The translations under genes were made by a program, and so were the position numbers. The notes below the pieces were generated by a model that searched no databases, had not been told where the DNA came from, and saw only the letters and a program-made list of their open reading frames with translations. DNA of 64,000 bases, taken from assembly GCA_963826535.1 (NCBI GenBank), contig CAWGXL010000011.1, forward strand, positions 803,521 through 867,520. Direction: 5' to 3'. Shown here in pieces: positions 11,460 through 47,883 of the stretch (positions are counted from its first letter, which is position 1; each line of letters starts with the position of its first letter). This stretch comes from an uncultured bacterium. GTDB lineage: Bacteria; Patescibacteriota; Microgenomatia; Levybacterales; UBA12049.

Positions 11460-12635
11460 AATTATAACATAGGTTGTGTTGCCAGGTTTTTAGTGTTGTT
11501 TGTATAAGTTACGAAACATTTTAGACATTTCGTAACTATGGATCATTACGCAAAAGCATACCCAATCTTTAGTAGAATCAAAGGCATTGAGGAGGTGAAA
11601 GAGATGCTCAAAAGCCTTAAACGGTTCTCTAGGGATGAAGTCGCACAAGAACGATTACGCATCATTGAGTTTTATGACGAGTATGGAGAGCGTGCAACGA
11701 AAAAAGCTTTTCGAGTTGGAAGGAATACCCTTTGGGTTTGGAAGCAACGATTAAAAAACAATAAAAACAAACTATCGTCACTTATTCCTGATTCCACAAC
11801 GCCTAAATCCAAAAGACAAATGCAAACTCATCCAAAAGTACTTTCATATATCCGTTACTTGCGGGAGAAACATCCCCGTCTGGGAAAGGAAAAGATAAAA
11901 CCACTTTTAGATCAATATTGCAAGAAAGAAGAGCTAGTAGCAATAGGAGAATCAACTATCGGAAAGGTCATTAAAAGAAATAATTTCTATTTCCAAAAGA
12001 GTGGCAAGATCTATCATAATCCTTCACATAAATTTGCTAAGGCAAAAAGAAAGAAGCGGGACAGGATCAAGAAGCCGCCAAGACCGCAGTCTTTTGGCTA
12101 TATTGAAATGGATACAGTCATTAAATTTGTTGATGGAATAAAAGTATATTTTTTAACAGCCATAGATGTGAAGCTTAAATTTGCATTCAGCCTGCCCTAT
12201 GGCAAACTCAATAGCCGTAATACTGTTGATTTCTTCAAGAAGCTCCATTCAGTATATCCAATAACAATTATCACTGTGCAAACAGACAATGGCTTAGAGT
12301 TTCTTGGAGAATTTGAAGAATACCTTGAAAAACAAAATATACCACATGTTTTTATATATCCCAGATGCTGCAAAATCAACGGCACTATTGAACGGTTCAA
12401 TAGAACCATCCAAGAAGACTTTATTGATGAAAACTTACATATTATTGCAGACCGAAAACTATTCTCTTCCAAATTAATCGAATATTTGTTATTCTACAAT
12501 ACAGAGCGACCACATAAATCCTTGGGATTACAATCCCCATTGGGATATTTATTAAAACATGGAGGTATGTCTAAAAACTCCGTAACTTATACATTGTTTT
12601 GAATTAATAATTCTTTCTGTTATAATTCCCAATAA
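11460..12635 (+). mobile_element. IS481-family insertion sequence (single transposase ORF)
   Basis: DDE integrase-core transposase ORF flanked by imperfect inverted repeats: aattataacatagg at about 11463 and its complement ctgttataatt at about 12621. Confidence 0.55.
11538..12602 (+). CDS. IS481-family DDE transposase (rve integrase core)
   Basis: N-terminal HTH region, then DTV...TDNGLEF...YPRCCKINGTIERFNRTI...YNTERPHKSLG (rve-domain catalytic residues). Confidence 0.8.
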   Translation: MDHYAKAYPIFSRIKGIEEVKEMLKSLKRFSRDEVAQERLRIIEFYDEYGERATKKAFRVGRNTLWVWKQRLKNNKNKLSSLIPDSTTPKSKRQMQTHPKVLSYIRYLREKHPRLGKEKIKPLLDQYCKKEELVAIGESTIGKVIKRNNFYFQKSGKIYHNPSHKFAKAKRKKRDRIKKPPRPQSFGYIEMDTVIKFVDGIKVYFLTAIDVKLKFAFSLPYGKLNSRNTVDFFKKLHSVYPITIITVQTDNGLEFLGEFEEYLEKQNIPHVFIYPRCCKINGTIERFNRTIQEDFIDENLHIIADRKLFSSKLIEYLLFYNTERPHKSLGLQSPLGYLLKHGGMSKNSVTYTLF

Positions 12636-24220: not shown

Positions 24221-24249
24221 CTCTGTTCATTTCTTGGTAAAATCACATC

Positions 24250-24336
24250 TATGAATCTATCTGTGGGAATTGTTGGGTTGCCGAATGTTGGGAAGTCGAC
24301 TTTGTTTAATGCTATTGAAGAAGTAGGCGGGACTTG
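24250..24336 (+). pseudogene. Displaced/decayed copy of the ychF 5' end (first 28 codons, then stop)
   Basis: atgaatctatctgtgggaattgttgggttgccgaatgttgggaagtcgactttgtttaatgc encodes [21 protein letters not shown], identical in protein to the ychF N-terminus at 27117. About 75% nt identity with mostly synonymous changes; has its own TAAAAT -10 box 8 nt upstream. Confidence 0.65.
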
Positions 24337-24388
24337 ACAGGATAGCTAATAAGTTATAACATTGTTATAATATAATTTTGGAGGTGAT

Positions 24389-24628
24389 ATGCAGCAGAAG
24401 GTAATACAAATAGGGAATTCGTCAGGAATCACCTTACCGCGATCTATAAGACAGAATGCGGGATTGAAACCTGGAGATAAAGTCGAGGTCAATACAAAGG
24501 GCTCGGATATTATTATTTCTCCTGTTAAGAAGGTAAAAGTGGCGGGTGTAAACGCGAAATTTGTGAAAATGGTTGATGAGTTTATTAATGAACATGAAGA
24601 TGTACTCCGGGAACTCGCCAATAGATGA
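24389..24628 (+). CDS. AbrB/MazE/SpoVT-family antitoxin
   Basis: VIQIGNSSGITLPRSIRQNAGLKPGDKVEV swapped-hairpin motif; GGAGG RBS; overlaps the Doc gene by 4 nt (ATGA). Confidence 0.7.
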   Translation: MQQKVIQIGNSSGITLPRSIRQNAGLKPGDKVEVNTKGSDIIISPVKKVKVAGVNAKFVKMVDEFINEHEDVLRELANR

Positions 24629-25008
24629 AATACCTTACTCCTCAGCGTGTATTGGCGATTCATGATCAATTAATCAAGAGATTCGGAGGGTCATTTGGGT
24701 TGCGAGATTTGGGTCTGCTTGAGTCTGCGGTTGCAAGACCGAGGGCAAGTTATGGAGGGGAAGATCTCTACCGGACAATTTTTGATAAAGCCGCTGCTCT
24801 TCTTCATTCGCTTTTAAAAAATCATATGTTCGTAGATGGGAATAAGCGGACAGCTCTTGCTTCAGCGGGTGTATTTTTGAAATTGAATGGATACAAGCTT
24901 ATAAATAAACATAATGAAGAGTTGGAATTTGCACTTAAAGTGGAAAGTGAAAGTTTGTCTTTGGAGGAAATTGCGGAGTGGCTTGAGAAGAATAGTACTG
25001 AGGTTTGA
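24625..25008 (+). CDS. Doc (death-on-curing) / Fic-fold toxin
   Basis: Doc motif HMFVDGNKRTALASAGVFL (HxFx[DN]GNKR). Confidence 0.75.
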   Translation: MKYLTPQRVLAIHDQLIKRFGGSFGLRDLGLLESAVARPRASYGGEDLYRTIFDKAAALLHSLLKNHMFVDGNKRTALASAGVFLKLNGYKLINKHNEELEFALKVESESLSLEEIAEWLEKNSTEV

Positions 25009-25154
25009 AGCTGGGGGTTTAATGAGGTAGTATGCGTTGCGGCCAGTCCTACTGTCATCACCCAAGTCAAAAGACTAATTTAATCCTCAAATTAATCTTT
25101 TAATACACTTTGCCACTTGACAGCTTCATATACATGTGATATAAAAAGATTATC

Positions 25155-25994
25155 ATGATTAATGAATCCGTACAGTCAGATAAAAAGGAAACTCAAAGCG
25201 TAACTAATGCCTCATCACCTCAGAAAAGAAAGCGGGGAGCATTTCCTCGACTATCTCTTAAAAAGAGTTTGGAACTTTCTAAGGCTATATATAAGCTTGG
25301 ACAAGGTGAGCCAATTAGAAGGTTAAACATTTTTGATAGTTTAGGAAAATCGGCAGAAAGTGGTTCAAGCAGGAGTTTAGTCACTAATTCAAGCGCTTAT
25401 GGTTTAACAAAAGGAGGCTATCAAGCTGATTATTTGGAGCTGACAGAAAAAGGGAAAATGCTAATTTCTATCAATGAAGAAAGGAAGAAATATGAAGTCG
25501 CATACGATATTTTATTTGCCAATGATCTTTTTTCAGGTTTTATTGAATATTGGAAAAATAAACAGCTTCCGTCAGATGAAATAGCTCCAGATTGGTTTGT
25601 GAGAAATTTTCAACTTACAGCCTCAGATGCAAAAGCAGCTTGGGATGTAATAAAAGAGAATATAGACGATTGGAAGCTTACAGAATTGCTTTCGGGTAAA
25701 CAGGTAATTCTTTCTAAAGATATTGCTTCAGAGAGCTTGAAGAAAATATTTGGAAATTTACATGAAGCAGAAATACTTGAGGCAACCAGAGGTATCTCTG
25801 AGACGCTTACAAAAGTAGAAGAGAAAGAACCATCTCTGGTGCAGTCTAATACTATTGAACAAGGGTTAGCTGGATTTGAGAGAAAATATACATATGGCAC
25901 AGCCCGTATGATTTTTCCTGCAAAAATGAAACAAACAGAATTGGATAAGATGAAAATGGCAATTGATGGACTAGTAGAAGTTGTAGAACCATAA
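25155..25994 (+). CDS. Hypothetical protein (orphan) inside island block
   Basis: 279 aa ORF in an AT-rich region; preceded by TTGACA-17nt-TATAAA promoter at about 25108-25140; no recognised domain. Confidence 0.5.
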   Translation: MINESVQSDKKETQSVTNASSPQKRKRGAFPRLSLKKSLELSKAIYKLGQGEPIRRLNIFDSLGKSAESGSSRSLVTNSSAYGLTKGGYQADYLELTEKGKMLISINEERKKYEVAYDILFANDLFSGFIEYWKNKQLPSDEIAPDWFVRNFQLTASDAKAAWDVIKENIDDWKLTELLSGKQVILSKDIASESLKKIFGNLHEAEILEATRGISETLTKVEEKEPSLVQSNTIEQGLAGFERKYTYGTARMIFPAKMKQTELDKMKMAIDGLVEVVEP

Positions 25995-26001
25995 TTAATT
26001 G

Positions 26002-26122
26002 GGGAGCGTATCCAACGAGGCCGAAGGTAAGTAGTGTCCAAAGCTACTACGTCGATGCGATATATTTTGATATCAATATGCTCTGAGGCGTTCCGTCACA
26101 GGTTCGAATCCTGTCCTCCCCA
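26002..26122 (+). ncRNA. tRNA-like element (canonical T-arm + acceptor 3' strand; aberrant or fragmentary body)
   Basis: 3' end acaggTTCGAATcctgt-cctcccc-a gives a perfect T-stem/T-loop and an acceptor strand pairing with 5' ggggagc (1 mismatch). The intervening about 85 nt cannot be folded into D/anticodon arms by eye. Followed by a terminator. Confidence 0.35.
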
Positions 26123-26195
26123 GTGCTAAATCTATTAATAGTTGAAATTTTAGCTTCAATTTGCTATTATGATTGTGATATCAAAATGTACTAGC

Positions 26196-26218
26196 AAACA
26201 ACCTCCTTCTGGAGGTTT
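26196..26218 (+). terminator. Rho-independent terminator
   Basis: cctcc-ttct-ggagg followed by tttttt. Confidence 0.5.
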
Positions 26219-26246
26219 TTTGTGGGTAAAATTGCTATAATCCTAT

Positions 26247-26297
26247 TTATGAACTTATCGGTGGGGATTGTGGGATTGCCGAATGCGTGGGGGAGTT
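26247..26297 (+). pseudogene. Second decayed copy of the ychF 5' end (13 codons, then stop)
   Basis: atgaacttatcggtggggattgtgggattgccgaatgcg encodes [13 protein letters not shown]; own TATAAT box (gctataat) 8 nt upstream. Confidence 0.55.
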
Positions 26298-26356
26298 GAC
26301 TTTCTCTTATAAGATTATTACATGATATTGGAAATGTTCTATGGTATACTACAACT

Positions 26357-26821
26357 ATGGATAAGGTATCAATTTCTGTTCGAAAACTTAGAAGTAATCT
26401 TGAGAAAATTTTAGGCCTTAAAATTTCTATAGCTTGGAAAGGTTTTGGTTCTGCACTTTTTCTAGAATTGGGGAATCTTCATGAAGAATTAGCATGGGAA
26501 AAAGGAGGGAAAATTACTACTGCTAAAGTGGGCGAATGGACTTTATCAAGTGCTGGCGCCTGGAAATTACTTAGAAATGGAAGGATGTTGCTAGATGCTG
26601 AAAAAGCAAAAGAGTCTCAAATTGAAAAAGTGATTAAAGGTTTTGAAAATCTTACTATAAAGTCAGTAGATATCAGTGATAAGCTAGTATTGCGTTTATT
26701 AAATAATGAGATTATTGAGTTTAATAAAGCAGAATATGGGTTTTTCAATTTGTTATTAAATGAAAAGACGAATATAGGTTATGAGAATGATAAGCCGTAT
26801 ATTCAGCAGTTAAGTCTATAA
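26357..26821 (+). CDS. Hypothetical protein
   Basis: 154 aa ORF between the second ychF-fragment copy and ychF; no homology recognised. Confidence 0.4.
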   Translation: MDKVSISVRKLRSNLEKILGLKISIAWKGFGSALFLELGNLHEELAWEKGGKITTAKVGEWTLSSAGAWKLLRNGRMLLDAEKAKESQIEKVIKGFENLTIKSVDISDKLVLRLLNNEIIEFNKAEYGFFNLLLNEKTNIGYENDKPYIQQLSL

Positions 26822-26828
26822 ATAATAT

Positions 26829-27035
26829 TTATCTTCTTTTCGTTTTTTTAACGTCACCAGCTACTTCTAAAAATTCATTACCCTTTTCTAAAAGTTCCCG
26901 GAAAGAAAAGCTATTTGATTCCTTTTGGTAATATTTTCCAAGGTATCGATGGAATTTGTTCTTTTGACTTAGATCGGTAATGCCTAGCTTTTTGCAAATA
27001 CTCTCAAAATCTTTATTTTTATCTCTATTTGTCAT
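26829..27035 (-). CDS. Hypothetical small basic protein
   Basis: 68 aa; convergent with 26357 gene. Confidence 0.35.
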   Translation of the reverse strand: MTNRDKNKDFESICKKLGITDLSQKNKFHRYLGKYYQKESNSFSFRELLEKGNEFLEVAGDVKKTKRR

Positions 27036-27116
27036 AGTGAAACATTTTTAATTTGTCCTCATTATATCAAAGTTTTTTTATTTCGTTTCTTTTTGTAACT
27101 TGGTATAATCAGATGT

Positions 27117-28346
27117 ATGAATCTTTCTGTTGGGATAGTCGGATTACCAAACGTAGGAAAATCTACTTTGTTTAATGCGCTTTTGAAGAAGCAGCAGGCG
27201 TTGGCGGCGAATTATCCGTTTGCTACTATTGAGCCGAATGTGGGTGTGGTGGCGGTGGCGGATTCGCGGTTGGAGAGGTTGGCGGAGATTGTGGCAGAGG
27301 AGATGCGGGGTCCTGTCGCTCCCTCGTCCCGTCCGATGTCCTCGGTCGCAGGCTCCCTGCGGGCACTCGACGGGACACCCTCCGGTCGCGCCACCCCTTC
27401 TTTACCTCCGATAAAGCCGGCGATGATTTCTTTTGTGGATATTGCGGGGCTTGTGAAGGGGGCTTCGGAGGGGGCGGGGTTGGGGAATAAGTTTTTGTCG
27501 CATATTCGGGAGGTTAGGATTATTGCGCATGTTGTGCGGGCTTTTTCAGACGCGGATGTGGTGCGGGAGGGGAGTGTGGATCCTCAGAATGATTATATAA
27601 CTATAGGGACAGAGTTGATTCTTGCGGATTTGCAGACGGTTGAGAAGCAGCGGAAGAGTAAGGCGGTGAAGACTGATGTGGTGAAGAAGTTGGCGATTGA
27701 GAAATTGTATAAGGCATTAAATCAGGGAAATGCTGCGAGGGAAGTTGTATTGACAGATGAAGAAAAAGAATCAATTAGTGATTTATTTTTGTTATCAGGT
27801 AAGGCGGAAGTTATTGTTCTTAATGTTTCGGAGCAGGATTATACAAAAGATAAAATTCCTGAGATTATAAAAAAATATTCTGAATATTTTCAAGGTGGTA
27901 GTTCGTCGACCTCACCCCAACACTCTCCTAATAGGAGAGGGAGTAATTCTATGATTGTCATATGCGCGAAAATTGAGTCGGAACTTTCGGAGTTGTCGGA
28001 GGAGGAACAGAAGGAATATTTAAAAGGATTGGGTCTCACGCAATCGGGATTGGAGCGATTGATTCAAAAGGCTTATGAAACTTTGGGACTTATATCTTTT
28101 TTGACAGCGGGGGAGAAAGAGGTGAGAGCTTGGACTATAAGAAAAGGTATAAGCGCGCAAATGGCGGCGGGGGAGATTCATACGGATTTTATTAAGAAGT
28201 TTATTAAGGCGGAAGTTGTGGGATATGATGACTTTGTTGAAGTAGGCGGGTGGAAGAAGGCAAGGGAGCAAGGGAGGGCGAGGCAAGAGGGAAGGGATTA
28301 TTTGATGAAGGACGGGGATGTAGTGGAGTTTAAAATAGGAACTTAG
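27117..28346 (+). CDS. ychF: Ribosome-binding ATPase YchF (Obg-like GTPase family) with in-frame insertions
   Basis: G1 [18 protein letters not shown]3 [28 protein letters not shown]-terminal TGS domain. 409 aa versus about 363 typical: extra GC-rich segment 27307-27398 and palindromic segment around 27923-27939. Confidence 0.85.
27307..27398. repeat. GC-rich RPE-like element inserted in-frame within ychF
   Basis: Near-identical to 4461-4535 (2 mismatches over about 75 bp). Encodes [34 protein letters not shown] between conserved YchF segments EEMRG and [11 protein letters not shown]; no stop codons. Confidence 0.6.
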
Positions 28347-28798: not shown

Positions 28799-29077
28799 AT
28801 GAGAAGTTATGATTTGGTAGTTGTTTTGCGGCCGTCATTGGATGATAAACTGAGAAAGAAATTGATTGATGGGTTTAAGACAATACTTAAGGACATGAAG
28901 TTTACCAAAGAGGAAGAGTGGGGACAGAAGCCTCTGGCATATGTTATAAAAAAAGAAGTTGCAGGTTATTATTACCTTTATAAATTTGAGACTGAGAACA
29001 CAATCCCGGCGGGGTTTGAGCAAAAGCTCATGGCGCAGGATAATATATTGAGACACTTATTATTGAGGACAAAATAG
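28799..29077 (+). CDS. rpsF: 30S ribosomal protein S6
   Basis: MRSYDLVVVLRPSLDD... canonical S6 N-terminus; rpsF-ssb-rpsR order. Confidence 0.85.
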   Translation: MRSYDLVVVLRPSLDDKLRKKLIDGFKTILKDMKFTKEEEWGQKPLAYVIKKEVAGYYYLYKFETENTIPAGFEQKLMAQDNILRHLLLRTK

Positions 29078-29196
29078 TTAAAAGTTCAAAGTGCAAAGTT
29101 AAAAGTTAAGGAATATTTTATAAACAGTCTTTCATTAATAATAATTTTGAATTTTTCACTTTTAATTTTGAATTTGAGCGACTGAAAGGAGCGATT

Positions 29197-29898: not shown

Positions 29899-30147
29899 AT
29901 GGCAGAGAGAACTAGGCAGACAAAAAGAAGAAGAGTTGTATCAGTACCACAGGAATGTTATTTCTGTAAAGAAAAAATAGTTCCTCTATATTCCGATATT
30001 TCTGTTTTGCAACGGTATACCACTGATCGTGGAAAAATTATGGGGCGGTCACGGAGTGGTACTTGCGCAAAACACCAGAGAAGGCTCACTTCGAACATTA
30101 AATATGCGCGTCATCTGGCTCTTCTACCATTCGTTGGAGGAGAATAA
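29899..30147 (+). CDS. rpsR: 30S ribosomal protein S18
   Basis: 82 aa; CYFCKEKI...DYKNVSLLQRY-type S18 core. Confidence 0.85.
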   Translation: MAERTRQTKRRRVVSVPQECYFCKEKIVPLYSDISVLQRYTTDRGKIMGRSRSGTCAKHQRRLTSNIKYARHLALLPFVGGE

Positions 30148-30235
30148 ATAAATTCAAAATTCAAAATTACAAATTCCAAATAATATCAAAATTCTAATTT
30201 CCAAAATTCAAAACGTTTTGGATTTATGAATTTAA
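30136..30235. repeat. AT-rich repeat shared with 51921-52015 (about 90 bp), part of a large imperfect palindrome centred on AAAACGTTTT
   Basis: aataaattcaaaattcaaa..aaattccaaataatatcaaaattc.aat...aaaacgtttt is near-identical at both loci; the 30250-30330 arm is the reverse complement. Confidence 0.6.
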
Positions 30236-31123: not shown

Positions 31124-32376
31124 GAGTGTTTCTTTTGGTTGTTATAGCAGGATTAATCGGGTATTATCTTGGTGTAACAAAGATAGCGATAGACCTCCGA
31201 AATTATCAGCCACATATTGAAGTCACCAGTAAAGCACCACCACCTTCTGCGAGTAATGTTGATTTTGGCCGCGTTTGGGCAGTTATGCAGAAATTGGAGT
31301 CTACCTACTATGATAAAAAAGCAATAGATGGGGAGAGGTTTCTTAATGGTGCGGTAGAGGGGGTAGTAAATAGTTTGGATGATCCATATACTGTGTATTT
31401 GCCGCCTGCGAAAAATAATGATTTCAAACAAGGGTTAGCAGGAAAGTTTGAGGGGATTGGCGCAGAACTTGGCATGAAAGGAAAACAGATTATTGTAGTC
31501 GCTCCGCTTGACGGCAGTCCTGCCCAAAAAGCAGGTTTGCAGCCCGGGGATGCGATTCTTAAAGTAAACGCGGAATTTACAAATGGTTGGACACTAAGCC
31601 AGGCGGTAGATAAGATCAGAGGTGAGAAGGGGACAGAGGTGACTTTAACTATTTTGCATCAGTCAGATGCAAAACCGAAAGAGATTAAATTGACCCGGGA
31701 TACTATAACTATCAAAAGTGTTACCACTTGGGTTAAAAGCGTAAAGGATATTGATGGAATAAAACCACAGGCAGCTGGGCTTAAGAATTTTCAGGATACA
31801 AAAGTTGTATATATTCGATTGTCACAATTTGGGGATAGCACAAATAAGGAATGGCAAAATGTAGCGACACAAGTTGACCGCACTCTTAAGGCAGATAAAG
31901 ATATTAGAGGTGTTATTTTGGACTTGAGGAATAATCCGGGAGGATATCTTACAGATTCTGTTTATATAGCATCTGAATTTATCCGGGACGGGACAGTTGT
32001 CAGTCAAGAAGACCGGAACGGAGATAGAACTTCGTATAAAGTAACAGGCCGCGGATTATTATTAGATGTACCGTTGATAGTTCTTGTTAATAAAGGATCG
32101 GCATCAGCAAGTGAGATTGTAGCAGGTGCTATGCAGGATCATACACGTGCAAAGTTGATCGGAGAGATTACTTTTGGAAAAGGAACTATCCAGCAAGCAG
32201 AGGATCTGGGTGGAGGGGCCGGTCTTCATATCACAATCGCGAAATGGCTCACGCCGGACGGAAACTGGGTACACTTGAAAGGCCTCACGCCGGATATCTT
32301 GGTCGATCCGGATAGTAAAGATCCATCTCATGATATACAGCTTGAGAAAGCAGTTGAGGAATTGGTGAAAGAATAG
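31060..32376 (+). CDS. S41 family C-terminal processing peptidase (CtpA-like) with PDZ domain
   Basis: N-terminal TM anchor; PDZ (GIGAELGMKGKQIIVVAPLDGSPAQKAGLQPGDAILKVN); S41 core (LDLRNNPGG, catalytic SASASE...GKGT). Confidence 0.8.
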   Translation: MERQEILPEQPRKSNNIPSRLRVFLLVVIAGLIGYYLGVTKIAIDLRNYQPHIEVTSKAPPPSASNVDFGRVWAVMQKLESTYYDKKAIDGERFLNGAVEGVVNSLDDPYTVYLPPAKNNDFKQGLAGKFEGIGAELGMKGKQIIVVAPLDGSPAQKAGLQPGDAILKVNAEFTNGWTLSQAVDKIRGEKGTEVTLTILHQSDAKPKEIKLTRDTITIKSVTTWVKSVKDIDGIKPQAAGLKNFQDTKVVYIRLSQFGDSTNKEWQNVATQVDRTLKADKDIRGVILDLRNNPGGYLTDSVYIASEFIRDGTVVSQEDRNGDRTSYKVTGRGLLLDVPLIVLVNKGSASASEIVAGAMQDHTRAKLIGEITFGKGTIQQAEDLGGGAGLHITIAKWLTPDGNWVHLKGLTPDILVDPDSKDPSHDIQLEKAVEELVKE

Positions 32377-32513
32377 TTTAAAGTTCAAAATGCAAAGTTC
32401 AAAATTAAAGTTAATAATTTAAAGTTATCCATCAATTTTGAATTTTAAATTGCAACATTTCATTTTAACTTTGAAGTTTAGATCCCCATTGGGGACACTA
32501 TTAATTTGTTTCT

Positions 32514-33671: not shown

Positions 33672-33737
33672 CAATTATTGATGGGTCTTGCAATTTTAGA
33701 TACTTAATATATAATAATATATAAGAAAGATATATAG

Positions 33738-33761
33738 ATTCCCGCCTTCGCGGGAATGACA
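33738..33761. repeat. 28-bp-family palindromic element, solo copy (ATTCCC-N8-GGGAAT core)
   Basis: attcccgccttcgcgggaatgaca; immediately upstream of the RBS of the 33772 gene. Confidence 0.6.
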
Positions 33762-34512: not shown

Positions 34513-34588
34513 TTGAAGATTGAGTTATTTGTAATTTTTCCTCTAAGAATGTATACCCGAATAAAATCCAGTTGCCCTCACTCTTTTG

Positions 34589-34614
34589 TAATTCCCGCGA
34601 ACGCGGGAATCCAG
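34589..34614. repeat. Palindromic element, left copy flanking GIY-YIG gene
   Basis: taattcccgcgaacgcgggaatccag. Confidence 0.65.
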
Positions 34615-34922: not shown

Positions 34923-34944
34923 GAGGTTTGAATTATTATACCTT

Positions 34945-34972
34945 CTGGATTCCCCTGTCCAGGGGAATGACA
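34945..34972. repeat. Palindromic element, right copy flanking GIY-YIG gene (inverted relative to left copy)
   Basis: ctggattcccctgtccaggggaatgaca = reverse complement of the 39579 copy. Confidence 0.65.
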
Positions 34973-35015
34973 ATCTATTTGCTGCAAGCAGTGAGGAATT
35001 AAACTTTAAAATAGA

Positions 35016-39540: not shown

Positions 39541-39578
39541 TAAATGGAATAAGTTACTCAAGTTATAAAAAAATGATT

Positions 39579-39606
39579 TGTCATTCCCCTGGACAGGGGA
39601 ATCCAG
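39579..39606. repeat. Palindromic element, left copy of an empty pair
   Basis: tgtcattcccctggacaggggaatccag. Confidence 0.65.
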
Positions 39607-39661
39607 AAGATATAAATATTTCTACATTAAAAAAGTAAATGGAAAAACTTATTTTTACCTA

Positions 39662-39689
39662 CTGGGTTCCCGCGTTCGCGGGAATGACA
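39662..39689. repeat. Palindromic element, right copy of an empty pair
   Basis: ctgggttcccgcgttcgcgggaatgaca; reverse complement of the 34589 copy type; 55-bp AT-rich spacer between the two. Confidence 0.65.
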
Positions 39690-39712
39690 ATAAACTGGGT
39701 AGCACGAGCAAG

Positions 39713-40585
39713 TTATTTCTCTTCGAATGGGTGTTCGTTGGGGATTTCGCCGTCCAGTATATTCGGGAGGTTTTTCCAGGATTTGTTGATGCGGTGGTCG
39801 GTGAGGCGGTCTTGGGGGAAGTTGTAGGTTTTAATTTTTTCTGAGCGCATACCACGGCCTACTTGTGTAGCTCTGAGAGAAGCGATTTGGGTCTGCTGTT
39901 TTTCGAGTTCTATTTCCCAGAGTTTGGCGCGGAGTAATTTCATAGCGATTTCGCGATTTTGTATTTGTGAACGCTCGGCTTGGGCTGTTACAACAAGACC
40001 GCTGGGTTTATGACGGATGCGCACGGCAGTTGAGACTTTGTTTACATTTTGCCCGCCATGGCCTCCGCTACGAAATGCTTCGAACTCAATGTCATCGGGG
40101 TTAATATGTAAATCTATATCTTCAAGTTCAGGGAGAATAGAAACAGTGCTGGTTGAAGTATGAATGCGGCCTTTTTTTTCGGTTGCAGGTGTTCTTTGGA
40201 CTCGATGGACACCTGCTTCAAATTTAAATATATTAAATGCGCCTTTCCCTAATATTTTAATTATGTATTCATCCAGTCTTTCGACTGTGAAGCCTTTTTT
40301 TTGCGCGAAACGGGTGTACATACGCAGGAGTTCTTCCGCCCATAATTTGGCCTCGTCACCGCCGGCTGCGCCTTTGACTTCAAGAATGATATTGCGTTCA
40401 TCGAAATTATCCTGCGCCTTTGTTTGGGAATTTTTTAGACTATCTTCAATCACTTTTTTTTCTTCTTCAAGATTAGTTAGTTCTTGCTGGGCTAAGGTTA
40501 TTAATGCAGGATCGGAAAGTAAGGTTTTTGTTTCCTCGATTTTTTGTTCAAGCTCCTGAAGTTGTATTAATCGGTAGTCGGACAT
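39713..40585 (-). CDS. prfA: Peptide chain release factor 1 (short form)
   Basis: GGQ motif [12 protein letters not shown]; PAT tripeptide ([14 protein letters not shown]) marks RF1 rather than RF2; no frameshift site. Confidence 0.8.
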
Positions 40586-40588
40586 TTG

Positions 40589-40888
40589 CTATTTTAGGCC
40601 TATGAGCATTTCTCGGAGTGTTTTGGGGCCTTCTTGTGATTTTTTCTTTTCTTCAATTTTTTTCACTTTTTTCTGTTGGTATTTTTGAGCATTTTCTTGT
40701 TTGGTCTGGAATTTTTTAATTAATGATCCGGAGTCTACAAATTTTTGCTGTCCGGTGTAGAATGGATGGCAATCGCTGCAGAGTTCTATGTGAATTGTTT
40801 CCCGGGTAGATCCGGTGGTAAAACGATTACCACAGACACAAATGACTTGAGCGTTGTCGTAAAATTTAGGATGAATATTTGCTTTCAT
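40589..40888 (-). CDS. rpmE: 50S ribosomal protein L31 with C-terminal Lys-rich extension
   Basis: MKANIHPKFYDNAQVICVCGNRFTTGST...HIELCSDCHPFYTGQQK. Confidence 0.85.
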   Translation of the reverse strand: MKANIHPKFYDNAQVICVCGNRFTTGSTRETIHIELCSDCHPFYTGQQKFVDSGSLIKKFQTKQENAQKYQQKKVKKIEEKKKSQEGPKTLREMLIGLK

Positions 40889-41012
40889 TATACTTATTAT
40901 AGCCTAATTTTGAATGCTTAGCAAGTGAAAAGTAGGAAGATTATTCTGCACAGATGTAAAAATCTCATTAAAAATATCTAGCGAGCTTCTGCGCGTCAGT
41001 GCAAAATAGTGT

Positions 41013-42395
41013 TTATTGAGTTTGGGGTAGTTCGGCTTTGATAAGCTCTTCGGTTCCTTTCGTAGTAGTTTCAATTGCAGCAGCAGCAATTGCCCCCAAT
41101 AAAAATAGTAACACTTTGCCCAAAGTCAATTTATTTTTTTCTTCTGGCGTTAGATTGTCTCCTTTATTTTCAAGTTGATTTATTTCTTGTTTAAGATTGT
41201 TTTGTTCTGTTGAAATATTTTCAGGTTTAATATTTTTTAATGTATCTGCTGTTGAAATAATCGTATCTGGATTTTGGCTTAATTTTTTAATAATCTCCGC
41301 TCTTTTATCCGGAGATACTTTCATATCGGCCAATTGTGCTCCGATTTCACCCATAGCATTTAACTGTTTTTGTTCTTGGGATAATTCATTTTTCTCGGCA
41401 GATTCTGCAGGAGGTTGTGCTTCCGTTGCTTGCGTAGCAGGCTTATCTTCAATTTTCGTTGTAGGTTCAATTGCTTGAACTTGAGGTTGCTCGGGAGCCG
41501 GGTGTTCAACCTTGGCCGTGTCCGGTAGTGGTGATTCACCAGAGGGTGGGGGAGAACTTGATTCAGCAGTTACAGGTTGGGATCGTTCTCCGCCTGATGA
41601 TTGGTTTTTAGTTGCCAGGCGTGCTGCTTTTTTCATATCTAGTTCCGCGTTTTTGTCCTTGACCCATTTAGCCTTTCTGTCAGCTAGTTGTTGGGCTGAT
41701 TCCGTAACAGGCTTCTCAACTCTGGTAGTATCTGCATTTGGCGTTTCGGAAACGGGTGGAGGTTTGGGTTGTCCGGATTTCGCTTTTCCTAACTTGCCTT
41801 GGACCCAGGCTTTCAAGTTCTTTTTGTAATTTTCTGCCCGGGTACGCTCATCATTTTGTAAGGCTTGTTCAGTAACAGGAAGTTTAACATTAGCTTGTTC
41901 GGCATTCGGTGTTTCGGCAGTTTGTGGGGGAGAGGTTGCTTCTGCTGTTGGAGTAGTTTGTTCGGGAGCCGTCTGTGTTGTTTTAGTTTCTGTTTGTTGT
42001 TCCTGCGATGGTTTTGGAACAGAGGGTTCAACTTGGACCGTATCGAGTTTTGTTACTTCATCTGGTTGTCGGGACGATTTTGCTTCAGCTAAAGGCTTAA
42101 CACTTGCAGCCGCTTTTGTATCTAGGGTGTCTTGATTTTTGCTATTGTCGGTGGATGCATTTTGTTTGTATTCTATCTGCGGTTTATCTTTGCCTGTCTT
42201 AAAAAACATTTCCATTATACCCCTAGCATCTTTGCCTTGGCCTATTTTAATAGTGTCAAGTACTCCTTGTGCTTGTGCATCTTTTGGCTTAGGAGTTTCC
42301 GCTGGTTTTACAGACTGACTCATCTCTGCTCCTTTTTCCCGTATTGATGGAGTTGTTTCACTGCTTGTCGTATTCATTATTAGTACTTTTACCAA
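41013..42395 (-). CDS. Low-complexity Pro/Thr/Glu/Lys-rich protein with single C-terminal TM helix (tail-anchored)
   Basis: 460 aa, PEQTTPTAEATSPPQTAETP repeats; C-terminal LGKVLLFLLGAIAAAAI. Confidence 0.45.
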   Translation of the reverse strand: MVKVLIMNTTSSETTPSIREKGAEMSQSVKPAETPKPKDAQAQGVLDTIKIGQGKDARGIMEMFFKTGKDKPQIEYKQNASTDNSKNQDTLDTKAAASVKPLAEAKSSRQPDEVTKLDTVQVEPSVPKPSQEQQTETKTTQTAPEQTTPTAEATSPPQTAETPNAEQANVKLPVTEQALQNDERTRAENYKKNLKAWVQGKLGKAKSGQPKPPPVSETPNADTTRVEKPVTESAQQLADRKAKWVKDKNAELDMKKAARLATKNQSSGGERSQPVTAESSSPPPSGESPLPDTAKVEHPAPEQPQVQAIEPTTKIEDKPATQATEAQPPAESAEKNELSQEQKQLNAMGEIGAQLADMKVSPDKRAEIIKKLSQNPDTIISTADTLKNIKPENISTEQNNLKQEINQLENKGDNLTPEEKNKLTLGKVLLFLLGAIAAAAIETTTKGTEELIKAELPQTQ

Positions 42396-42462
42396 GTCAT
42401 GCTTTTATGATTTTTTTATTCTTAATAAACATTTATTTAAAATATTTATTTTATATTTGGCT

Positions 42463-43437
42463 TTAGATGTTTTCGGTTTTTTGGTGATCAATAACATTTA
42501 TGTTCTGATTGGCGATTTGCGCTTGTGGTCTGGGTCTTAATAGATGGAAGGGGTGGTAGTGGATGCGGCCTTCGGAGATGAAGATGCCTATAAATATTAG
42601 CGCTGCGCCCAAAAGAAATGTGGTTGTAATAGTTTCTCCCAGTAAAGGTTTGGCAATGAGTATGGCGATAAGCGGATCAGCATAGGAGAAGACAGCGACT
42701 TGATTGGCAGATATATATTTCATGGCAAATGTGTGAAGAGTATAGGCAACTGTTGAACAAAGTACGGCACCAAATAAAATGCCTATAATGCTTTTTAAGT
42801 CAAAGCTGAGTAGTTGGCTTGTATTTCCGGCTTCAAGAAAAACTAGAGGCAGGAAACTGATAGAAGTTATAGTAAAAATCCAGAATGTTAAGGTCAATGG
42901 ATTATATTTGGGAGCAATTTCTTTAAGCATAAGTGTGTAAAAAACCGAAAGTCCCATTGAGACAATGAATAATAAATTGCCAATTAGCGAGCTGTCCATG
43001 CCGTTTTCAAACAGTGGACGCATAACAATTATTACGACCCCAATGAGGCTGATAATTGTACCTTGGACCATTTTTTTCTTCAATTTTTCATGTAGAAAGA
43101 TTGTTGAACCAATGATTAAGAAGATTGGGGCAGCTGATGCTATTACAGGTACATTAATACTTGGTGAGAACTTTAGTCCAACATAATAATAGGCGATATG
43201 GAAGGTTAGTCCGATTACCGATATAAACATGAGTATTGGCCAATCCGCGCTATGTATTTTAAGTTTTTTGCGGATAAAGGGATAAAGAATAGCTGCAGCA
43301 AGCGAAAAGCGAAGAAAAGCGAGAGTAAAAGGTTGGATTTCGTCTAAAGACCATTTAAAAATAGGCGGCGCCGCGCCCCAAATAAGGTTGGCAACGATTA
43401 AGGAGAGTACTGCGAGTTGAATCTTGGACAGTTTCAT
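42463..43437 (-). CDS. EamA/DMT superfamily transporter
   Basis: 10 TM helices, two EamA repeats (LIVANLIWGAAPPIFK...). Confidence 0.7.
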   Translation of the reverse strand: MKLSKIQLAVLSLIVANLIWGAAPPIFKWSLDEIQPFTLAFLRFSLAAAILYPFIRKKLKIHSADWPILMFISVIGLTFHIAYYYVGLKFSPSINVPVIASAAPIFLIIGSTIFLHEKLKKKMVQGTIISLIGVVIIVMRPLFENGMDSSLIGNLLFIVSMGLSVFYTLMLKEIAPKYNPLTLTFWIFTITSISFLPLVFLEAGNTSQLLSFDLKSIIGILFGAVLCSTVAYTLHTFAMKYISANQVAVFSYADPLIAILIAKPLLGETITTTFLLGAALIFIGIFISEGRIHYHPFHLLRPRPQAQIANQNINVIDHQKTENI

Positions 43438-43470
43438 TGTGTAGACTTATTCTACTATATCATATTTTTA

Positions 43471-44745
43471 TTACTTGAGCGCTTCCAGGAGTTTTTCGAG
43501 GGTGTATTGTTTTTGCAGACGGGTTTTTAGGTTTTTTAGGGTTACTACATTTTTTTCTAATTCTTCAGGACCAATTATAATCACATTTGGAATTCCTTTT
43601 TGGTCTGCATATTTGAGTTGTTTTTCCAGAGGATTTTTTTCTTTTATTTCACCGAGATATATTTCAGTGTTGATATTGTCCGAACGAAGAATGGAGGCGA
43701 TTTGTAGAGATTGTTTCATGAGTTTTTCATTAAACACTGTTATCAGTACTTGAGCTACTTTTGCTTTTATATCAGGAATTTTATTGAATTGTTTGAGCAA
43801 TTCTTGTATAGGCATATCTCCCGGCGCCATTCCAACTCCGGGAATTCTTTCTCCCCCAATTGTTGCTGTTAAATTATCAAACCTGCCACCACCAAAAATT
43901 GCCCTTTTCAATCCTTGAGTTTTATCCCATGCTTCAAAGACAGTACGAGTATAGTAGTCAAAACCTCTAAATATTTTGGGATCAAATTCTATATATTGCT
44001 TAATATCAGAGTAATTTTCTAATGAATTAAATACTTTTTTCAGCCATTCGGATTTTGTGTAATCCTTGTTATCTATGAATTCAAATAGTGATTCTATTTG
44101 ATTTTCAGATAAGTCAGAGGTCTTTTTTATTTTTGCTAACAATTCAACTCTAGGAAGTTTATCAATTTTGTCGAGTAATCTAATTAATGTAGGACGATCC
44201 TTTATGGCAATATTTTGTTTATCACAAAAATCTTCAAAGAATGATCTGTCGCTTACTTTGATTACTACTTCATCAGGCGTAAGATTCAGTTCTTTAAAAA
44301 ATTCGGCTGCAATTGCCAGGATTTCTGCGTCGGCTTCCGGTGTTTCGGGACCTAAGATATTGATTTCCCATTGGAAGAATTCCCGGCCTCTCCCTTTTTG
44401 GGGCTGTTCATATCTCCAACCGCGGCCAAACATAAACCATCTAATTGGTTTTAATAGTTCCTGAGATTTTTGAGCGACCATACGAGCGACAGTGGGGGTG
44501 AGCTCGGGACGCAAGACAAGCAGATTGTTGTCTTTGTCTTTTAGTGTAAAGACTTGTTCTTTCAAAATTTCTTCATTTGTTTTATTTGCGTATAAGTCAA
44601 GATATTCAATTTCCGGTCCGTCATATTCTTGATAACCAAATTTTTCAGATACTTTTTTCATTTTTTGGTACAACCAATTGCGGAGCGCTAAATCATCCGG
44701 GTAAAAATCTCTGGTTCCTTTAACTGGCGATATTGTTTTATTCAT
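43471..44745 (-). CDS. hisS: Histidine--tRNA ligase
   Basis: Class II motifs: KGTRDFYP (motif 1 region), FRYEQPQKGRGREFFQ (motif 2), GGGRFD (motif 3); C-terminal anticodon-binding domain present, so HisS rather than HisZ. Confidence 0.8.
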   Translation of the reverse strand: MNKTISPVKGTRDFYPDDLALRNWLYQKMKKVSEKFGYQEYDGPEIEYLDLYANKTNEEILKEQVFTLKDKDNNLLVLRPELTPTVARMVAQKSQELLKPIRWFMFGRGWRYEQPQKGRGREFFQWEINILGPETPEADAEILAIAAEFFKELNLTPDEVVIKVSDRSFFEDFCDKQNIAIKDRPTLIRLLDKIDKLPRVELLAKIKKTSDLSENQIESLFEFIDNKDYTKSEWLKKVFNSLENYSDIKQYIEFDPKIFRGFDYYTRTVFEAWDKTQGLKRAIFGGGRFDNLTATIGGERIPGVGMAPGDMPIQELLKQFNKIPDIKAKVAQVLITVFNEKLMKQSLQIASILRSDNINTEIYLGEIKEKNPLEKQLKYADQKGIPNVIIIGPEELEKNVVTLKNLKTRLQKQYTLEKLLEALK

Positions 44746-44827
44746 AATGGTGTTTAATCATGAGTTTATTATACATTGAAAAGTTGAAAGTTTAAAGCGC
44801 AGCTAAAAATATAAAAATTGTACCTCA

Positions 44828-45538
44828 CTACATCAGTCTCCTTTTTTGTTGGGCGATAGTTATTTTATCTCTTATATCATCAAGAATCTGCTTGTCTCTT
44901 TGGCTCATTTTTTCTTCAGATTCAATCAGCCGTGTAGCGACTTGGTGAAATCTTTCAAGTTCTATAATATTGTTTGCCGCAATTGTCCGGCCTGAATCAA
45001 CCACATCAATTATTCCGACACAATCGTTAAATACATACTGTATTGCTTCTGTTTTTCCGGGAGATTCAAATATCGTAATTTCTTTTACACCTCTTTCATT
45101 TAAAGTTTCTTTGGAGATATTGGGAAATTTTGTGACAACCATTTTATTTTTTAAATCAATTACTCCAATTGATCCGTTTCTTATTCTTGTTTCTTGTTCA
45201 AATCGTTTAGTTACGCCTATAAAAAGAGCAGGTCTAGTTATGTCTGGGAAGAGTTCGTATATCGGAAGTGCTTCGCCTGCATTGGCGTTGAGTCCGGCTT
45301 CCCATAAGATGTCACTTCCGGTTATCCCTGCTTTTAAATTTGAGCGGGTGTCTTTTAGAATGCGCGGTATATCGCTTGCCCGCATAACGATAAGATCAAG
45401 CGGCATATTTTTTACCGGAACAAGATACTGCTTGCCGCAGTCCGTAAAATCCAGACCAACTGCTTTTAACAGTTTGTTAACATTTGTTTGTAGTTCTCCG
45501 CCGGGAAGAGCTATTCTTGTACGTTCGATATCTTTCAT
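44828..45538 (-). CDS. hisG: ATP phosphoribosyltransferase (HisG-like)
   Basis: TRIALPGGEL (cf. RIAIPSKGRL), DIPRILKD...GITGSDIL, C-terminal DVVDSGRTIAANNI (cf. DLVSTGATLRANGL). Confidence 0.65.
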   Translation of the reverse strand: MKDIERTRIALPGGELQTNVNKLLKAVGLDFTDCGKQYLVPVKNMPLDLIVMRASDIPRILKDTRSNLKAGITGSDILWEAGLNANAGEALPIYELFPDITRPALFIGVTKRFEQETRIRNGSIGVIDLKNKMVVTKFPNISKETLNERGVKEITIFESPGKTEAIQYVFNDCVGIIDVVDSGRTIAANNIIELERFHQVATRLIESEEKMSQRDKQILDDIRDKITIAQQKRRLM

Positions 45539-45639
45539 AAAAAAACATTTTTTTCAACAAAAAAACCTCACGTTCGTTATTTACCATTTGGCCTATATGA
45601 ATAGGTAATGGTGAAATAAGGAACGAGAGGTATTCGACG

Positions 45640-45900
45640 AGCTCATACTCATGAGCAATATCCTCCATACCTTAGCATTCGCCTTTTAGTACTATTCGTA
45701 CACGGCTCATGCTGCGGTATTCGGAGGATGATGAGATCGTTGTCCCATCAAAAAAGGACCTCTCGCGGTCCCATCCTTGATTCCTAAAGGCATTTTTCCT
45801 TTAGGCTCTTCGGCCGACTCCGCGTTACGACATCGACTGTTGTAGTTTACGGTTCAACTTCCGTAAGGCATTTTTGCCTTCAGCTTCCGGATCGTGACTC
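45640..45900 (-). promoter_or_regulatory. Candidate T-box riboswitch leader (tRNA-His-sensing) upstream of hisG-hisS
   Basis: On the minus strand: strong stem cctaaagg-aaaaatg-cctttagg (Stem III-like), then aaucaAGGAUGGGACCGCGag matching the T-box consensus AGGGUGGNACCGCG (12/13). Bulge UGGG implies discriminator C73 (tRNA-His). Then ggacc-gcgaga-ggtcc + UUUUUU terminator. Confidence 0.45.
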
Positions 45901-46074
45901 CGGTCAGACGCTTTATAAATCTTTAATTGTTCTGTTATTTTAGCATAAAAGAATATTTTGTCAAATTTTGTAGGCTATTTTATCAGCTTTCGTAGAGGTT
46001 GTGAAGTGCTTTTGTTACTGGATACGTTTATTTGCTATTTGTTTAAAACCGATAGAAAATCAGCAATTTTAGTT

Positions 46075-46911
46075 TTATTTAGCTTGTATATATTCTTTTT
46101 GGGCAACTTGATTAAGTATTAGTCTAAAATCGCTAAATACTTCAAGTCCATTCTCCTTCCCAAATGATCCACTAGGGCCTCTAGCAACACCTAGTACTTT
46201 TCCTTCATTATCTACCAAAGGCCCACCGCTATTGCCTGGTAAAACTCTTCCATTATAGTAAAGATGTAGGTCTTTTGTCTCAGTTACCCCTTGCCTTTTC
46301 ATCAAAGCTTGCATATAAGGAGTGTGGTTGGGAGGCTCTTTAGTAGAAACTTTGCCTATACTTATTAAAGGTCTTTGAGAGTCAGCCCAAGCTTCTTTAA
46401 ATTCACCGGGAAACCTAATGGCTGCAGCATTTTGAGTTGTATCATGGCGCACATTCTGTTCGGATATCTCAACTCCTTCATTATCGCCTTCAAATGGAAA
46501 TATAGCTGCATCAGTTGCATGCATGCCATTAGATTTAGCGGTGATGCTATCATAAAGCAAATCAGGATTTTTCATCACCCCTTCTATCATTTCTCCTTTA
46601 TTATCTCTGTAGTGATACTTCAGTGATTTTTCAGGATGAGCTAACATTTCGTCTATTACATGTGTTGCTGTTACTAAATATTTATTCCCCTCATAGGAAA
46701 TGATTACTCCACTGCCACCAGGTTCTGAAGGGTTTTCACTTACAAGTACGGTTGCATTAACAGCTTGTTGTAATTCTGGAATAACACCTTGTTCAGATTT
46801 AAAATAATGAGTCCTATCTTGAAATGTAGGATTTTGGAATGTTGCTGTGTCTAATGAATCCCTAACTTCAGTAGCTGGTCTATACCCAGTTTCTATAAAA
46901 CCTGCATCCAT
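46075..46911 (-). CDS. Trypsin-like (S1 family) serine peptidase, no signal peptide
   Basis: His in YLVTATHVI, Asp in ATDAAIFPF, Ser in GNSGGPLVDNEGKVLGVA. Confidence 0.7.
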   Translation of the reverse strand: MDAGFIETGYRPATEVRDSLDTATFQNPTFQDRTHYFKSEQGVIPELQQAVNATVLVSENPSEPGGSGVIISYEGNKYLVTATHVIDEMLAHPEKSLKYHYRDNKGEMIEGVMKNPDLLYDSITAKSNGMHATDAAIFPFEGDNEGVEISEQNVRHDTTQNAAAIRFPGEFKEAWADSQRPLISIGKVSTKEPPNHTPYMQALMKRQGVTETKDLHLYYNGRVLPGNSGGPLVDNEGKVLGVARGPSGSFGKENGLEVFSDFRLILNQVAQKEYIQAK

Positions 46912-47076
46912 ATTTATTATTAGTATATCAAAAATGTGGCAAAGAAGAATGCTATTGTTTAGCTTTAATTTCGGATTGAGGGAGTTATTAGATTTCTATA
47001 AGTTGTTTTGGGGATTTTTTGTTAGCTATTGAGATGCATGGGTAAATAAGGAAGATTTTATTATTTTGATATGTAT

Positions 47077-47883
47077 TTATTCTTTTTGGGCAACTTGTTT
47101 AAGTATCTGTCTAAAATCGCTAAATATATTATTCTCACCAAATCCACTAGGGCCTTCAGCAACACCTAGTACTTTTCCTTCATTATCTACCAAAGGCCCA
47201 CCACTATTGCCTCGTGTAATTTTTCCATTATAGTAAAAATATAGATCTTCTATCTCATTTACCGTTTGTATTTCCAAAGCATGCATGTAAGTATTGTATA
47301 TAAGAGGCTTGTTAGGAAAGGCATTTCCTATACTAATTAAGGGTCTTTGAGATTCAACCCAAGCATGTTTAAATGCACCAGGAAATCCTATGGCTGCAGT
47401 ATTTTGGGTTACATTATGTAGCAAACTCTTTTCAGATATTTCAACTCCTTCATTGCCGCCTTCAAATGGAAATATAGCTGCATCAGTAGATCGCAGACCT
47501 TTAGATATAGCTGTAATGCTATCATAAAGCAAATCAGGATTTTTCATCACCCCTTCTTTTATCTCTCCTTTACTATCTCTGTAGTGATATTTAAGTGACG
47601 TTTCAGGATGAGCTAACATTTCACCAATCACATGTGTTGCTGTTACTAAATATTTATTCCCCTCATAGGAAATGATTACTCCACTGCCACCAGGTTCTGA
47701 AGGGTTTTCACTTACAAGTACGGTTGCATTAACAGCTTGTTGTAATTCTGGAATAACACCTTGTTCAGATTTAAAATAGATAATTCTATCTAAAGGTGTA
47801 GGATTTTGGAATGTTGCTGTGTCTAATGATCTCCTTACCTCAGAAGTTTGTCTATATAGAGCTTCTACAGCATTTGAAACCAT
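47077..47883 (-). CDS. Trypsin-like (S1 family) serine peptidase, tandem paralogue
   Basis: Same triad motifs. About 150 bp (47640-47790) are 100% identical to 46661-46810 of the neighbour, with identical upstream catatttattattagt; C-terminal halves diverge. Confidence 0.7.
   Translation of the reverse strand: MVSNAVEALYRQTSEVRRSLDTATFQNPTPLDRIIYFKSEQGVIPELQQAVNATVLVSENPSEPGGSGVIISYEGNKYLVTATHVIGEMLAHPETSLKYHYRDSKGEIKEGVMKNPDLLYDSITAISKGLRSTDAAIFPFEGGNEGVEISEKSLLHNVTQNTAAIGFPGAFKHAWVESQRPLISIGNAFPNKPLIYNTYMHALEIQTVNEIEDLYFYYNGKITRGNSGGPLVDNEGKVLGVAEGPSGFGENNIFSDFRQILKQVAQKE

Follow-up and report, generated by a model that had tools for sequence, protein, structure and literature searches.

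A GC-rich hairpin element in frame within ychF belongs to an apparently undescribed, probably mobile family of palindromic repeats in Patescibacteria

We analysed a 64-kb window (64,000 nucleotides; contig CAWGXL010000011.1) from an uncultured Patescibacteriota bacterium of the Levybacterales, and in particular a GC-rich hairpin element located inside the essential gene ychF, which encodes a redox-regulated/ribosome-binding ATPase. The host gene (27117-28346, + strand) is an intact open reading frame (ORF) of 409 amino acids. The element, recognised by a core search and by its score against a covariance model (88 bits, E = 6e-19), occupies positions 27306-27398 on the + strand; its 93 nt form codons 64-94 (31 codons), directly follow the protein block LAEIVAEEM, and contain 74% GC, compared with 38% in the window. 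A preliminary description of this DNA had reported a GC-rich segment lying in frame within ychF, which we confirm, and had put the addition at about 37 residues, which is too many: the net gain over the insert-free orthologues is here ~27-31 residues. The element is closed by a stem (P1) whose 5' half, GGGGT (27307-27311, + strand), pairs with ACCCC at 27393-27397; 96% of the alignment cells are paired in this stem, which may gain 3 nt on each side (27303-27401). At the outermost position of P1, 39 copies have a G-C pair and 17 have C-G. The main imperfect hairpin (27326-27376, + strand), comprising P3/P4 and a variable tip, has 98% of cells paired and compensatory changes in 8 of its 17 pairs. 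Within it lie the conserved core motifs TCCGATGTCCTCG (27332-27344, + strand) and TGCGGGCACTCGA (27358-27370, + strand), two C residues that are bulged, and a T.G mismatch that does not vary. This main hairpin is built by the inverted repeats noticed at the outset, gtcccgtc/gacgggac and gcagg/cctgc, which are real.

A second, longer copy lies between genes at 4460-4591 on the + strand (132 nt, 71% GC), found by the same core search and scoring 52 bits with the covariance model. It begins 18 nt past the stop codon of a DUF1801 gene (4025-4441) and is followed by a DUF1761 gene, and no intrinsic-terminator-like feature was seen alongside it. The two window copies differ by 2 mismatches in the first 69 nt and 2 in the last 24 nt (4 over the 93 shared positions), and their flanks have no sequence in common. 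The copy had been described as intergenic and near-identical, which holds, with an internal addition of about 45 nt, which does not: alignment of the copies gives 39 additional bases (4529-4567, + strand) with a small hairpin of their own, CGCCTG-TCAAG-CAGGCG. The same 39-nt segment is present in a copy from an unrelated metagenome (L040), inside an ORF that by eye is probably a DNA ligase. Searching the window with a 68-nt core returned exactly 2 sites, compared with 0 in 100 shuffles, and the covariance-model search of the 64 kb found no copy beyond these two.

Further copies were collected with a pattern made of the two most conserved blocks only, TCCGAYGTCCTCG N{0,30} TGCGGGCRCTCGA. In reference genomes this pattern matched 22 loci, 21 of which share flanks that are absent from the query: (C)GGGGTCCTG, a variable stretch, and CCCCR ahead of the first block, and, after the second, YGGGG, a run rich in C, a stretch complementary to the variable one, and CACCCCT(CGC). 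The 22nd locus, on a Mycobacterium contig of 65% GC, was rejected as a chance match. The same scan of metagenomes yielded 50 loci, all of them full-length matches (35-101 bits) to the covariance model, which was built from the first 24 copies; the viral contigs scanned gave no match, so that there is no evidence for a phage vehicle. The suspicion that the ychF segment is a dispersed repeat was thus borne out by 75 further copies in public genomes and metagenomes, all of which were gathered with a single exact-match core pattern; this biases the sample to the core, whose invariance is partly by construction. With the two in the window, the family stands at 77 copies in 68 distinct contexts after duplicates with a common flank were dropped, and the elements are ~85-105 nt long, or ~130 nt in the long variant. 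According to their records the hosts are Patescibacteria, Levyibacteriota, Daviesbacteria, and Saccharimonadales, and almost all are low-GC Patescibacteria (Levy-/Daviesbacteria-like). Several copies may occur in one genome or sample: at least 4 are present in the metagenome-assembled genome (MAG) JAHIGH01, and in Ga0213870 five different genes hold near-identical copies, of a subfamily that also occupies the two sites in the window and is found in at least 5 other samples. The MAGs behind six loci (L006, L007, L011, L017, L019, and L024) bear the labels Gammaproteobacteria, Lysobacterales, or Pseudomonadales; among the six contigs, five have 37-40% GC and one (L017, Pseudomonadales) 52%, and the host genes of L007 and L019 match hosts known from contigs of the Candidate Phyla Radiation (CPR). 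Either the labels or the binning of these MAGs are wrong, or Patescibacteria are not the only bacteria with the element.

Protein-level searches were less informative about abundance. An exhaustive phmmer search with the 33-residue peptide of the element gave 3 significant matches, a number that does not measure abundance because the query is too short to score high, and an index of 5.8 billion proteins returned no match to three concatenated translations of the element, having also missed the window YchF itself. Full-text literature searches brought up no account of an element of this type in CPR/Patescibacteria. The element is thus apparently an undescribed family of a known kind, similar to Rickettsia palindromic elements (RPEs) and repetitive extragenic palindromic (REP) sequences, and not a new category.

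All members share a common architecture consisting of the closing stem GGGGT/ACCCC, a covarying variable stem, the conserved imperfect core hairpin (TCCGAYGTCCTCG...TGCGGGCRCTCGA), and the variable tip. In the alignment of 68 sequences, 91% of the cells at the proposed pairs are paired, compared with 37-53% in controls in which the partners were slid by 1-3 columns; compensatory changes occur in 15 of the 30 pairs, and the covariation score was reached by none of 500 shuffles. The degenerate Y/R positions of the query pair with one another and covary (C-G 38, U-A 26, A-U 1, U-G 1, C-A 0). The idea that the fold is conserved is therefore upheld by a structure kept with compensatory changes. Minimum free energy (MFE) z-scores of single sequences are unremarkable (-0.1 to -2.0), and Rfam 15 has no match in the window at gathering scores, the element itself reaching only chance-level scores of 9-11 bits at E up to 10.

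The best database matches of the window YchF are YchF proteins of Patescibacteria (Levybacteria-like). Most close orthologues have 367 amino acids, and the longer ones are enlarged at the same two sites, site 1 after LAEITAxE and site 2 after KYxxLL; the window protein, with 409 residues, has an excess of 42. A peptide clearly homologous to the window insert is present at site 1 in three relatives (P0059, P0002, and P0004). When the inserts of P0059 and P0002 (loci L001 and L003) are aligned with the window copy as DNA, both partners have changed in three base pairs of the main hairpin (G-C to A-T once, T-A to C-G twice). Other orthologues carry the unrelated peptides SGQARMT, SPSLAMTE, or PRNDE at site 1, which look like translations of another small hairpin repeat. 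The solved YchF/OLA1 structures (2DBY, 1JAL, 8KIE, and 2OHF) align on either side of a gap at query residues ~60-95. In the AlphaFold model of the window protein (mean pLDDT 81), residues 68-92 form a coil with pLDDT below 50 between the helix of residues 50-64 and the strand of residues 103-108, and the rest of the fold is confident. Taken together, the gap in the structures, the predicted coil, and the insert-free orthologues of 367 residues indicate that the insertion is lineage-specific and that it falls in a surface loop of the G domain, modelled between helix α2 and strand β3, as the preliminary description had expected. At site 2, a separate lineage-specific insert (27894-27950), which is unrelated to the element, supplies the rest of the 42-residue excess. 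It holds the hairpin CTCTCC-TAATA-GGAGAG, of which there is one copy in the window and none in the fetched loci; the AlphaFold model again shows a coil with pLDDT below 50 (residues 261-273), and in orthologues this site is occupied by other, unrelated hairpin-like peptides.

Genic positions predominate in the family. Forty-three of the 68 contexts (63%) lie inside long ORFs in which coding continues in the same frame on both sides, and the other 25 are intergenic, in short gaps and often 1-30 nt past a stop codon. A Pfam scan of 20 host ORFs matched 19, confirming as hosts CarB, FolD, Tgt, TopA, the PolA 5'-3' exonuclease, Def, DnaX, GlmS, CysS, RecG, Prs, Mur ligases, a UvrD-like helicase-nuclease, glycosyltransferases, and an O-antigen-ligase-like membrane protein; ArgS and an ATP-dependent DNA ligase were identified by eye. 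The Pfam matches are split into more than one stretch in CarB, Tgt, the PolA 5'-3' exonuclease, and GlmS, which fits interruption by an insert. One further protein, P0121, joins a MurE-like N-terminus (as in L046) to a FolC-like C-terminus (as in L065 and P0123) exactly at the element, and is either a repeat-induced metagenome misassembly or the product of a true recombination between copies.

No genic copy breaks the frame (0 of 43). The element is inserted either way round, as sense in 24 of these contexts and as antisense in 19. A single phase serves for all 24 sense copies, at ~16 independent host sites, and the antisense copies use three phases in the ratio 9:6:2, besides two decayed copies. 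The frames used (+0, -1, and -2) are precisely the three that contain no cysteine, whereas the almost unused frames (+1, +2, and -0) contain 1-3 Cys; 39 of the 41 classifiable genic copies use a Cys-free frame. The window element has no stop codon in any of its six frames, so that stop codons do not explain this pattern. The kept frame and the choice of Cys-free frames point to selection at the protein level, and hence the genic copies appear, judging from these sequence patterns, to be transcribed and translated with the host protein. Genic and intergenic copies do not differ in element length modulo 3 as measured from one P1 end to the other, the true ends lying a few variable bases beyond P1.

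YchF (3), PolA (4), FolD (4), Def (3), and CarB (2) each hold the element at orthologous sites of several genomes, and at these sites the similarity of the element is uncoupled from that of its host. The window and L001 share 66% of YchF amino acids and 91% of element nucleotides, whereas for the window and L003 the values are 81% and 75%. The PolA 5'-3' exonucleases of L009 (element at 4265-4366) and L064 (1001-1103) are 98% identical in amino acids, with elements 86% identical in nucleotides that differ by 4 compensatory pairs; the L064 element is a mosaic with the tip of L009 and the basal stems of the window subfamily, and this pair indicates, at the level of sequence comparison, rapid turnover or mosaic conversion at one site. 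L064 also has an additional insert of ~18 residues just upstream of the element. Decayed, AT-richer remnants remain in frame at the Def and membrane-protein sites of other genomes (L007, 7001-7099; L032, 4654-4750). The comparisons show that same-site copies in orthologous genes have been replaced or converted faster than the host gene diverges. Together with the remnants, this uncoupling suggests that some insertions are old, were refreshed by re-insertion or gene conversion, and finally decayed into ordinary-looking linkers. It also answers the objection, raised beforehand, that the YchF segment might be ancestral: a homologous segment does exist in other YchF proteins, in line with that objection, but only within the same narrow clade (P0059, P0002, and P0004), and the uncoupled similarity is the behaviour of a mobile element and not of an ancestral domain. 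An ancestral domain, an intein, or an intron was rejected, as the same 93-nt DNA also occurs between genes and in more than 20 unrelated genes, with the frame kept.

The orientation of the element follows the DNA strand. Of 52 loci with at least 2.5 kb of flank, each oriented by its element, 44 have a positive GC skew of the flanks (element excluded) on the element strand (p = 4e-7). With the skew of the host gene only, the same holds for 23 of the 24 sense and 17 of the 19 antisense copies (40 of 43). Because the skew is positive for the antisense copies too, these lie in genes on the C-rich strand, and the element follows the DNA strand and not transcription. The G-rich strand is usually interpreted as the leading strand, which serves as template when the lagging strand is made. 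For IS200/IS605 elements, the active strand has been described on this lagging-strand template (PMC5027513). The GC skew of the window is strongly positive almost throughout (mean ~+0.18), including 40000-51000, where the genes are mostly on the - strand. The strand bias of the element, the frame filter, and the antisense in-frame copies had not been foreseen in the preliminary description.

What is observed, then, is a dispersed repeat of conserved architecture, in both orientations, within many unrelated housekeeping genes and also in the gaps between genes. We consider it probable (roughly 0.8) that this is a mobile palindromic repeat that is translated in frame and filtered by selection. 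A non-autonomous GC-rich hairpin element, mobilised in trans, would have become dispersed among the AT-rich genomes of one group of Patescibacteria (Microgenomates: Levy-/Daviesbacteria and their relatives). Its genic copies would add to the host protein a disordered loop of 28-35 residues rich in Gly, Pro, Ser, Ala, and Arg, and selection would retain only those insertions that are in frame, benign in composition, and placed in permissive surface loops. Mobility may be coupled to replication and specific for single strands, as in IS200/IS605 and REP elements, with a trans-acting enzyme, possibly an HUH/Y1-type transposase, recognising the imperfect hairpin on the lagging-strand template. The strand bias, the imperfect hairpin with its bulged C and invariant T.G, and the absence of target duplications and long terminal repeats are what suggest such an HUH/Y1-type pathway; we advance this single-strand, replication-coupled step tentatively, at a little under even odds. 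Rather unlikely, in our estimation, is a still stronger claim, that the family is the first single-strand, fork-coupled hairpin transposon (with an HUH-type or other enzyme) built for essential genes, with stop-free and Cys-free frames, and that much of the loop insertion and length variation in Patescibacteria proteins continues to arise from it. A bolder version would have the hairpin retained in situ for a host function at the DNA or RNA level, which would explain its compensatory persistence at orthologous sites.

Several observations weigh against mobility as set out above, or against its single parts. At paired columns, G.U and A.C occur equally (34 and 29), and the structure thus does not show which strand is active. 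Since the G-richness of one strand extends over the entire chromosome in some Microgenomates (PMC7143001), G-rich may not mean leading in every host, and the link to replication stays indirect. Regarding the insertion chemistry, no target-site duplication or direct repeat flanks the 64 copies inspected, and no fixed target motif appears at the flanks beyond the bases that extend the closing stem. A phmmer search of 508 kb of DNA with IS200 TnpA and RAYT queries found no match, and the neighbourhoods of the copies share no recurring gene family except syntenic housekeeping genes. In addition, gene conversion among old insertions might contribute more to the occupancy of the same sites than fresh transposition does.

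That last possibility, taken to its end, gives a rival explanation: ancient insertions that do not transpose, kept similar by ectopic gene conversion and horizontal exchange of gene segments. The orthologous sites filled across divergent genomes (YchF three, PolA and FolD four each, Def three, CarB two), mosaic copies such as that of L064, and the decayed remnants at the same sites would all fit. Near-identical copies, which several samples show in intergenic DNA as well as in no fewer than 10 different genes, require new insertions at some point, the two window copies have no common flanks, and conversion alone does not explain the strand bias; we give this explanation only a very slim chance. 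A classical MITE (a miniature inverted-repeat transposable element) of the cut-and-paste type, derived from a DDE insertion sequence and moving without a single-strand mechanism, would have the typical size of the element and could account for the short terminal complementarity GGGGT/ACCCC, which is sometimes 3-7 bp longer. The window even holds a candidate source, the rve (integrase-core) DDE transposase gene at 11538-12602, the only transposase-like gene noticed, without a systematic scan of the window ORFs; and in-frame MITE insertions are known in Coxiella, in Anabaena, and for ERIC elements (PMC10969869). Yet a target-site duplication was found at 0 of 64 copies, the conserved part is the internal imperfect hairpin and not the termini, and the strand bias is strong regardless of gene direction, all of which make such an origin improbable.

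The fold itself could instead be the functional unit, an untranslated structured RNA that acts in cis on expression, is removed in the manner of a ribozyme or intron, or is bypassed by the ribosome as are the yeast mitochondrial byp inserts. In its favour are strong covariation and conserved unpaired motifs like those of functional RNAs, the core U.G wobble that does not vary, the high GC content of a hairpin set in an AT-rich genome, and intergenic copies placed tight behind stop codons. Removal or bypass would, however, free both frame and peptide, and yet 43 of 43 genic copies are in frame and 39 of 41 are Cys-free. The transcript of the 19 antisense copies among these 43 would carry the complement, and orientation tracks the DNA strand instead of transcription. 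G.U is no commoner than A.C, no Rfam family matches up to E 10, and the z-scores of single sequences remain in their unremarkable range (-0.1 to -2.0); we regard a structured RNA as very improbable. Integron attC sites were rejected as well: by eye, no R'/R'' boxes like those of attC sites are apparent in the element, and the copies do not form cassette arrays.

Among known systems, the closest in behaviour are RPE-1 to RPE-10 of Rickettsia (Ogata et al. 2000, 2002, as summarised in PMC10969869), which this 2024 review of MITEs treats as an extreme and exceptional case of in-frame insertion, with equivalents elsewhere in prokaryotes only speculated upon. Both RPEs and the present element are palindromic repeats of ~100-150 bp without a transposase, dispersed in a small reduced genome, and both lie unusually often in frame in unrelated housekeeping genes, where they are apparently translated as an extra surface peptide. 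RPEs, in contrast, have been described only from Rickettsia (Rickettsiales), whereas this element is found in Patescibacteria and is likened to them by function and not by sequence homology; it is also GC-rich in an AT-rich host, has genic copies in both directions (24 sense, 19 antisense), and has a documented conserved imperfect core hairpin, covarying stems, and a strong DNA-strand bias. The RPE-like reading first given to the ychF segment is accordingly sound as a functional analogy and does not extend to membership of an RPE family. With the REP/REPIN sequences (RAYT, Y1 HUH), the family shares GC-rich imperfect hairpins with conserved mismatches or bulges, compensatory variation among copies, a many-copy and non-autonomous nature, and intergenic copies just downstream of genes. 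REPs, however, have 20-40 nt and are extragenic by definition, whereas this element has ~93 nt and is 63% genic, which places it outside that definition; nor is a GTAG/CGTC tag established at a defined end of it. The MITEs derived from IS200/IS605 (PATEs), with the single-strand "peel and paste" pathway (PMC5027513, PMC6006769), likewise make no target duplication and are likely recognised through imperfect hairpins, and the orientation bias seen here fits an active strand on the lagging-strand template, with GC skew as a proxy for the direction of replication. PATEs differ in having separate left and right subterminal hairpins and in inserting 3' of a fixed tetra- or pentanucleotide, while this element is a single composite hairpin with no fixed target seen. 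From classical DDE MITEs it is set apart by the lack of a target-site duplication and by a terminal complementarity of only 5-8 bp. Fungal mitochondria also harbour GC-rich palindromic mobile inserts in small AT-rich genomes, sometimes within coding genes, namely GC clusters, double-hairpin elements, and byp elements. Ribosomes pass over the byp elements, which have no need to preserve the frame; the present element, in contrast, is constrained in frame and peptide composition.

The region upstream of ychF and other repeats in the window deserve a separate description. A second copy of the ychF promoter with the first ~28 codons, ending in a stop, lies at 24222-24336 and is 77% identical to 27088-27178. 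It is followed by a block of ~2.8 kb (24337-27116) that holds, besides three ORFs to which Pfam has no match, genes for a MazE-like antitoxin (24389-24628) and a Fic/Doc toxin (24625-25008), and then by the real ychF. The whole of 24222-27116 looks like an island integrated at the 5' end of ychF, bringing or displacing a 5' gene fragment; PIN or Fic genes stand immediately upstream of ychF in the relatives L001 and L003 too. A second family of short GC-rich hairpins (GATTCCCGCnnnGCGGGAATGACA) occurs in both orientations at 33737-33761, 34587-34611, 34931-34980, 39571-39620, and 39641-39697, the last two between convergent genes ending at 39540 and 39713. The site-1 peptides SGQARMT and PRNDE resemble translations of a GATTCCCGCnnnGCGGGAATGACA-type repeat, and by this resemblance more than one hairpin family may insert in frame in these genomes. 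AT-rich intergenic repeats of AAAGTTCAAAGT-like and AAATTCAAAATTC-like units are located at 29073-29121, 32372-32420, 57213-57272, 58558-58585, 30147-30230, and 51920-51971, and may act as promoter or UP-like elements or as binding sites. Finally, 46028-46602 and 47015-47574 form a tandem duplication (72-86% identity) that covers two adjacent paralogues on the - strand (46075-46911 and 47077-47943), which by eye look like trypsin-like serine peptidases.

The hairpin family would add a second, independent instance, this one from the Candidate Phyla Radiation, of selfish DNA colonising essential protein-coding genes in frame, for which the RPEs of Rickettsia have so far been the chief example. 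Its anatomy is more informative than that of the RPEs, as the imperfect hairpin, the covarying stems, the frame filter, and the strand bias make the mechanism testable. The inserted low-complexity loops can confuse alignments and phylogenies, and near-identical copies may yield chimeric contigs and gene calls in metagenome assemblies, of which P0121 is a candidate example. For the organisms themselves, the element accounts for part of the odd length variation among CPR orthologues, as in YchF, which ranges from 367 to 416 amino acids.

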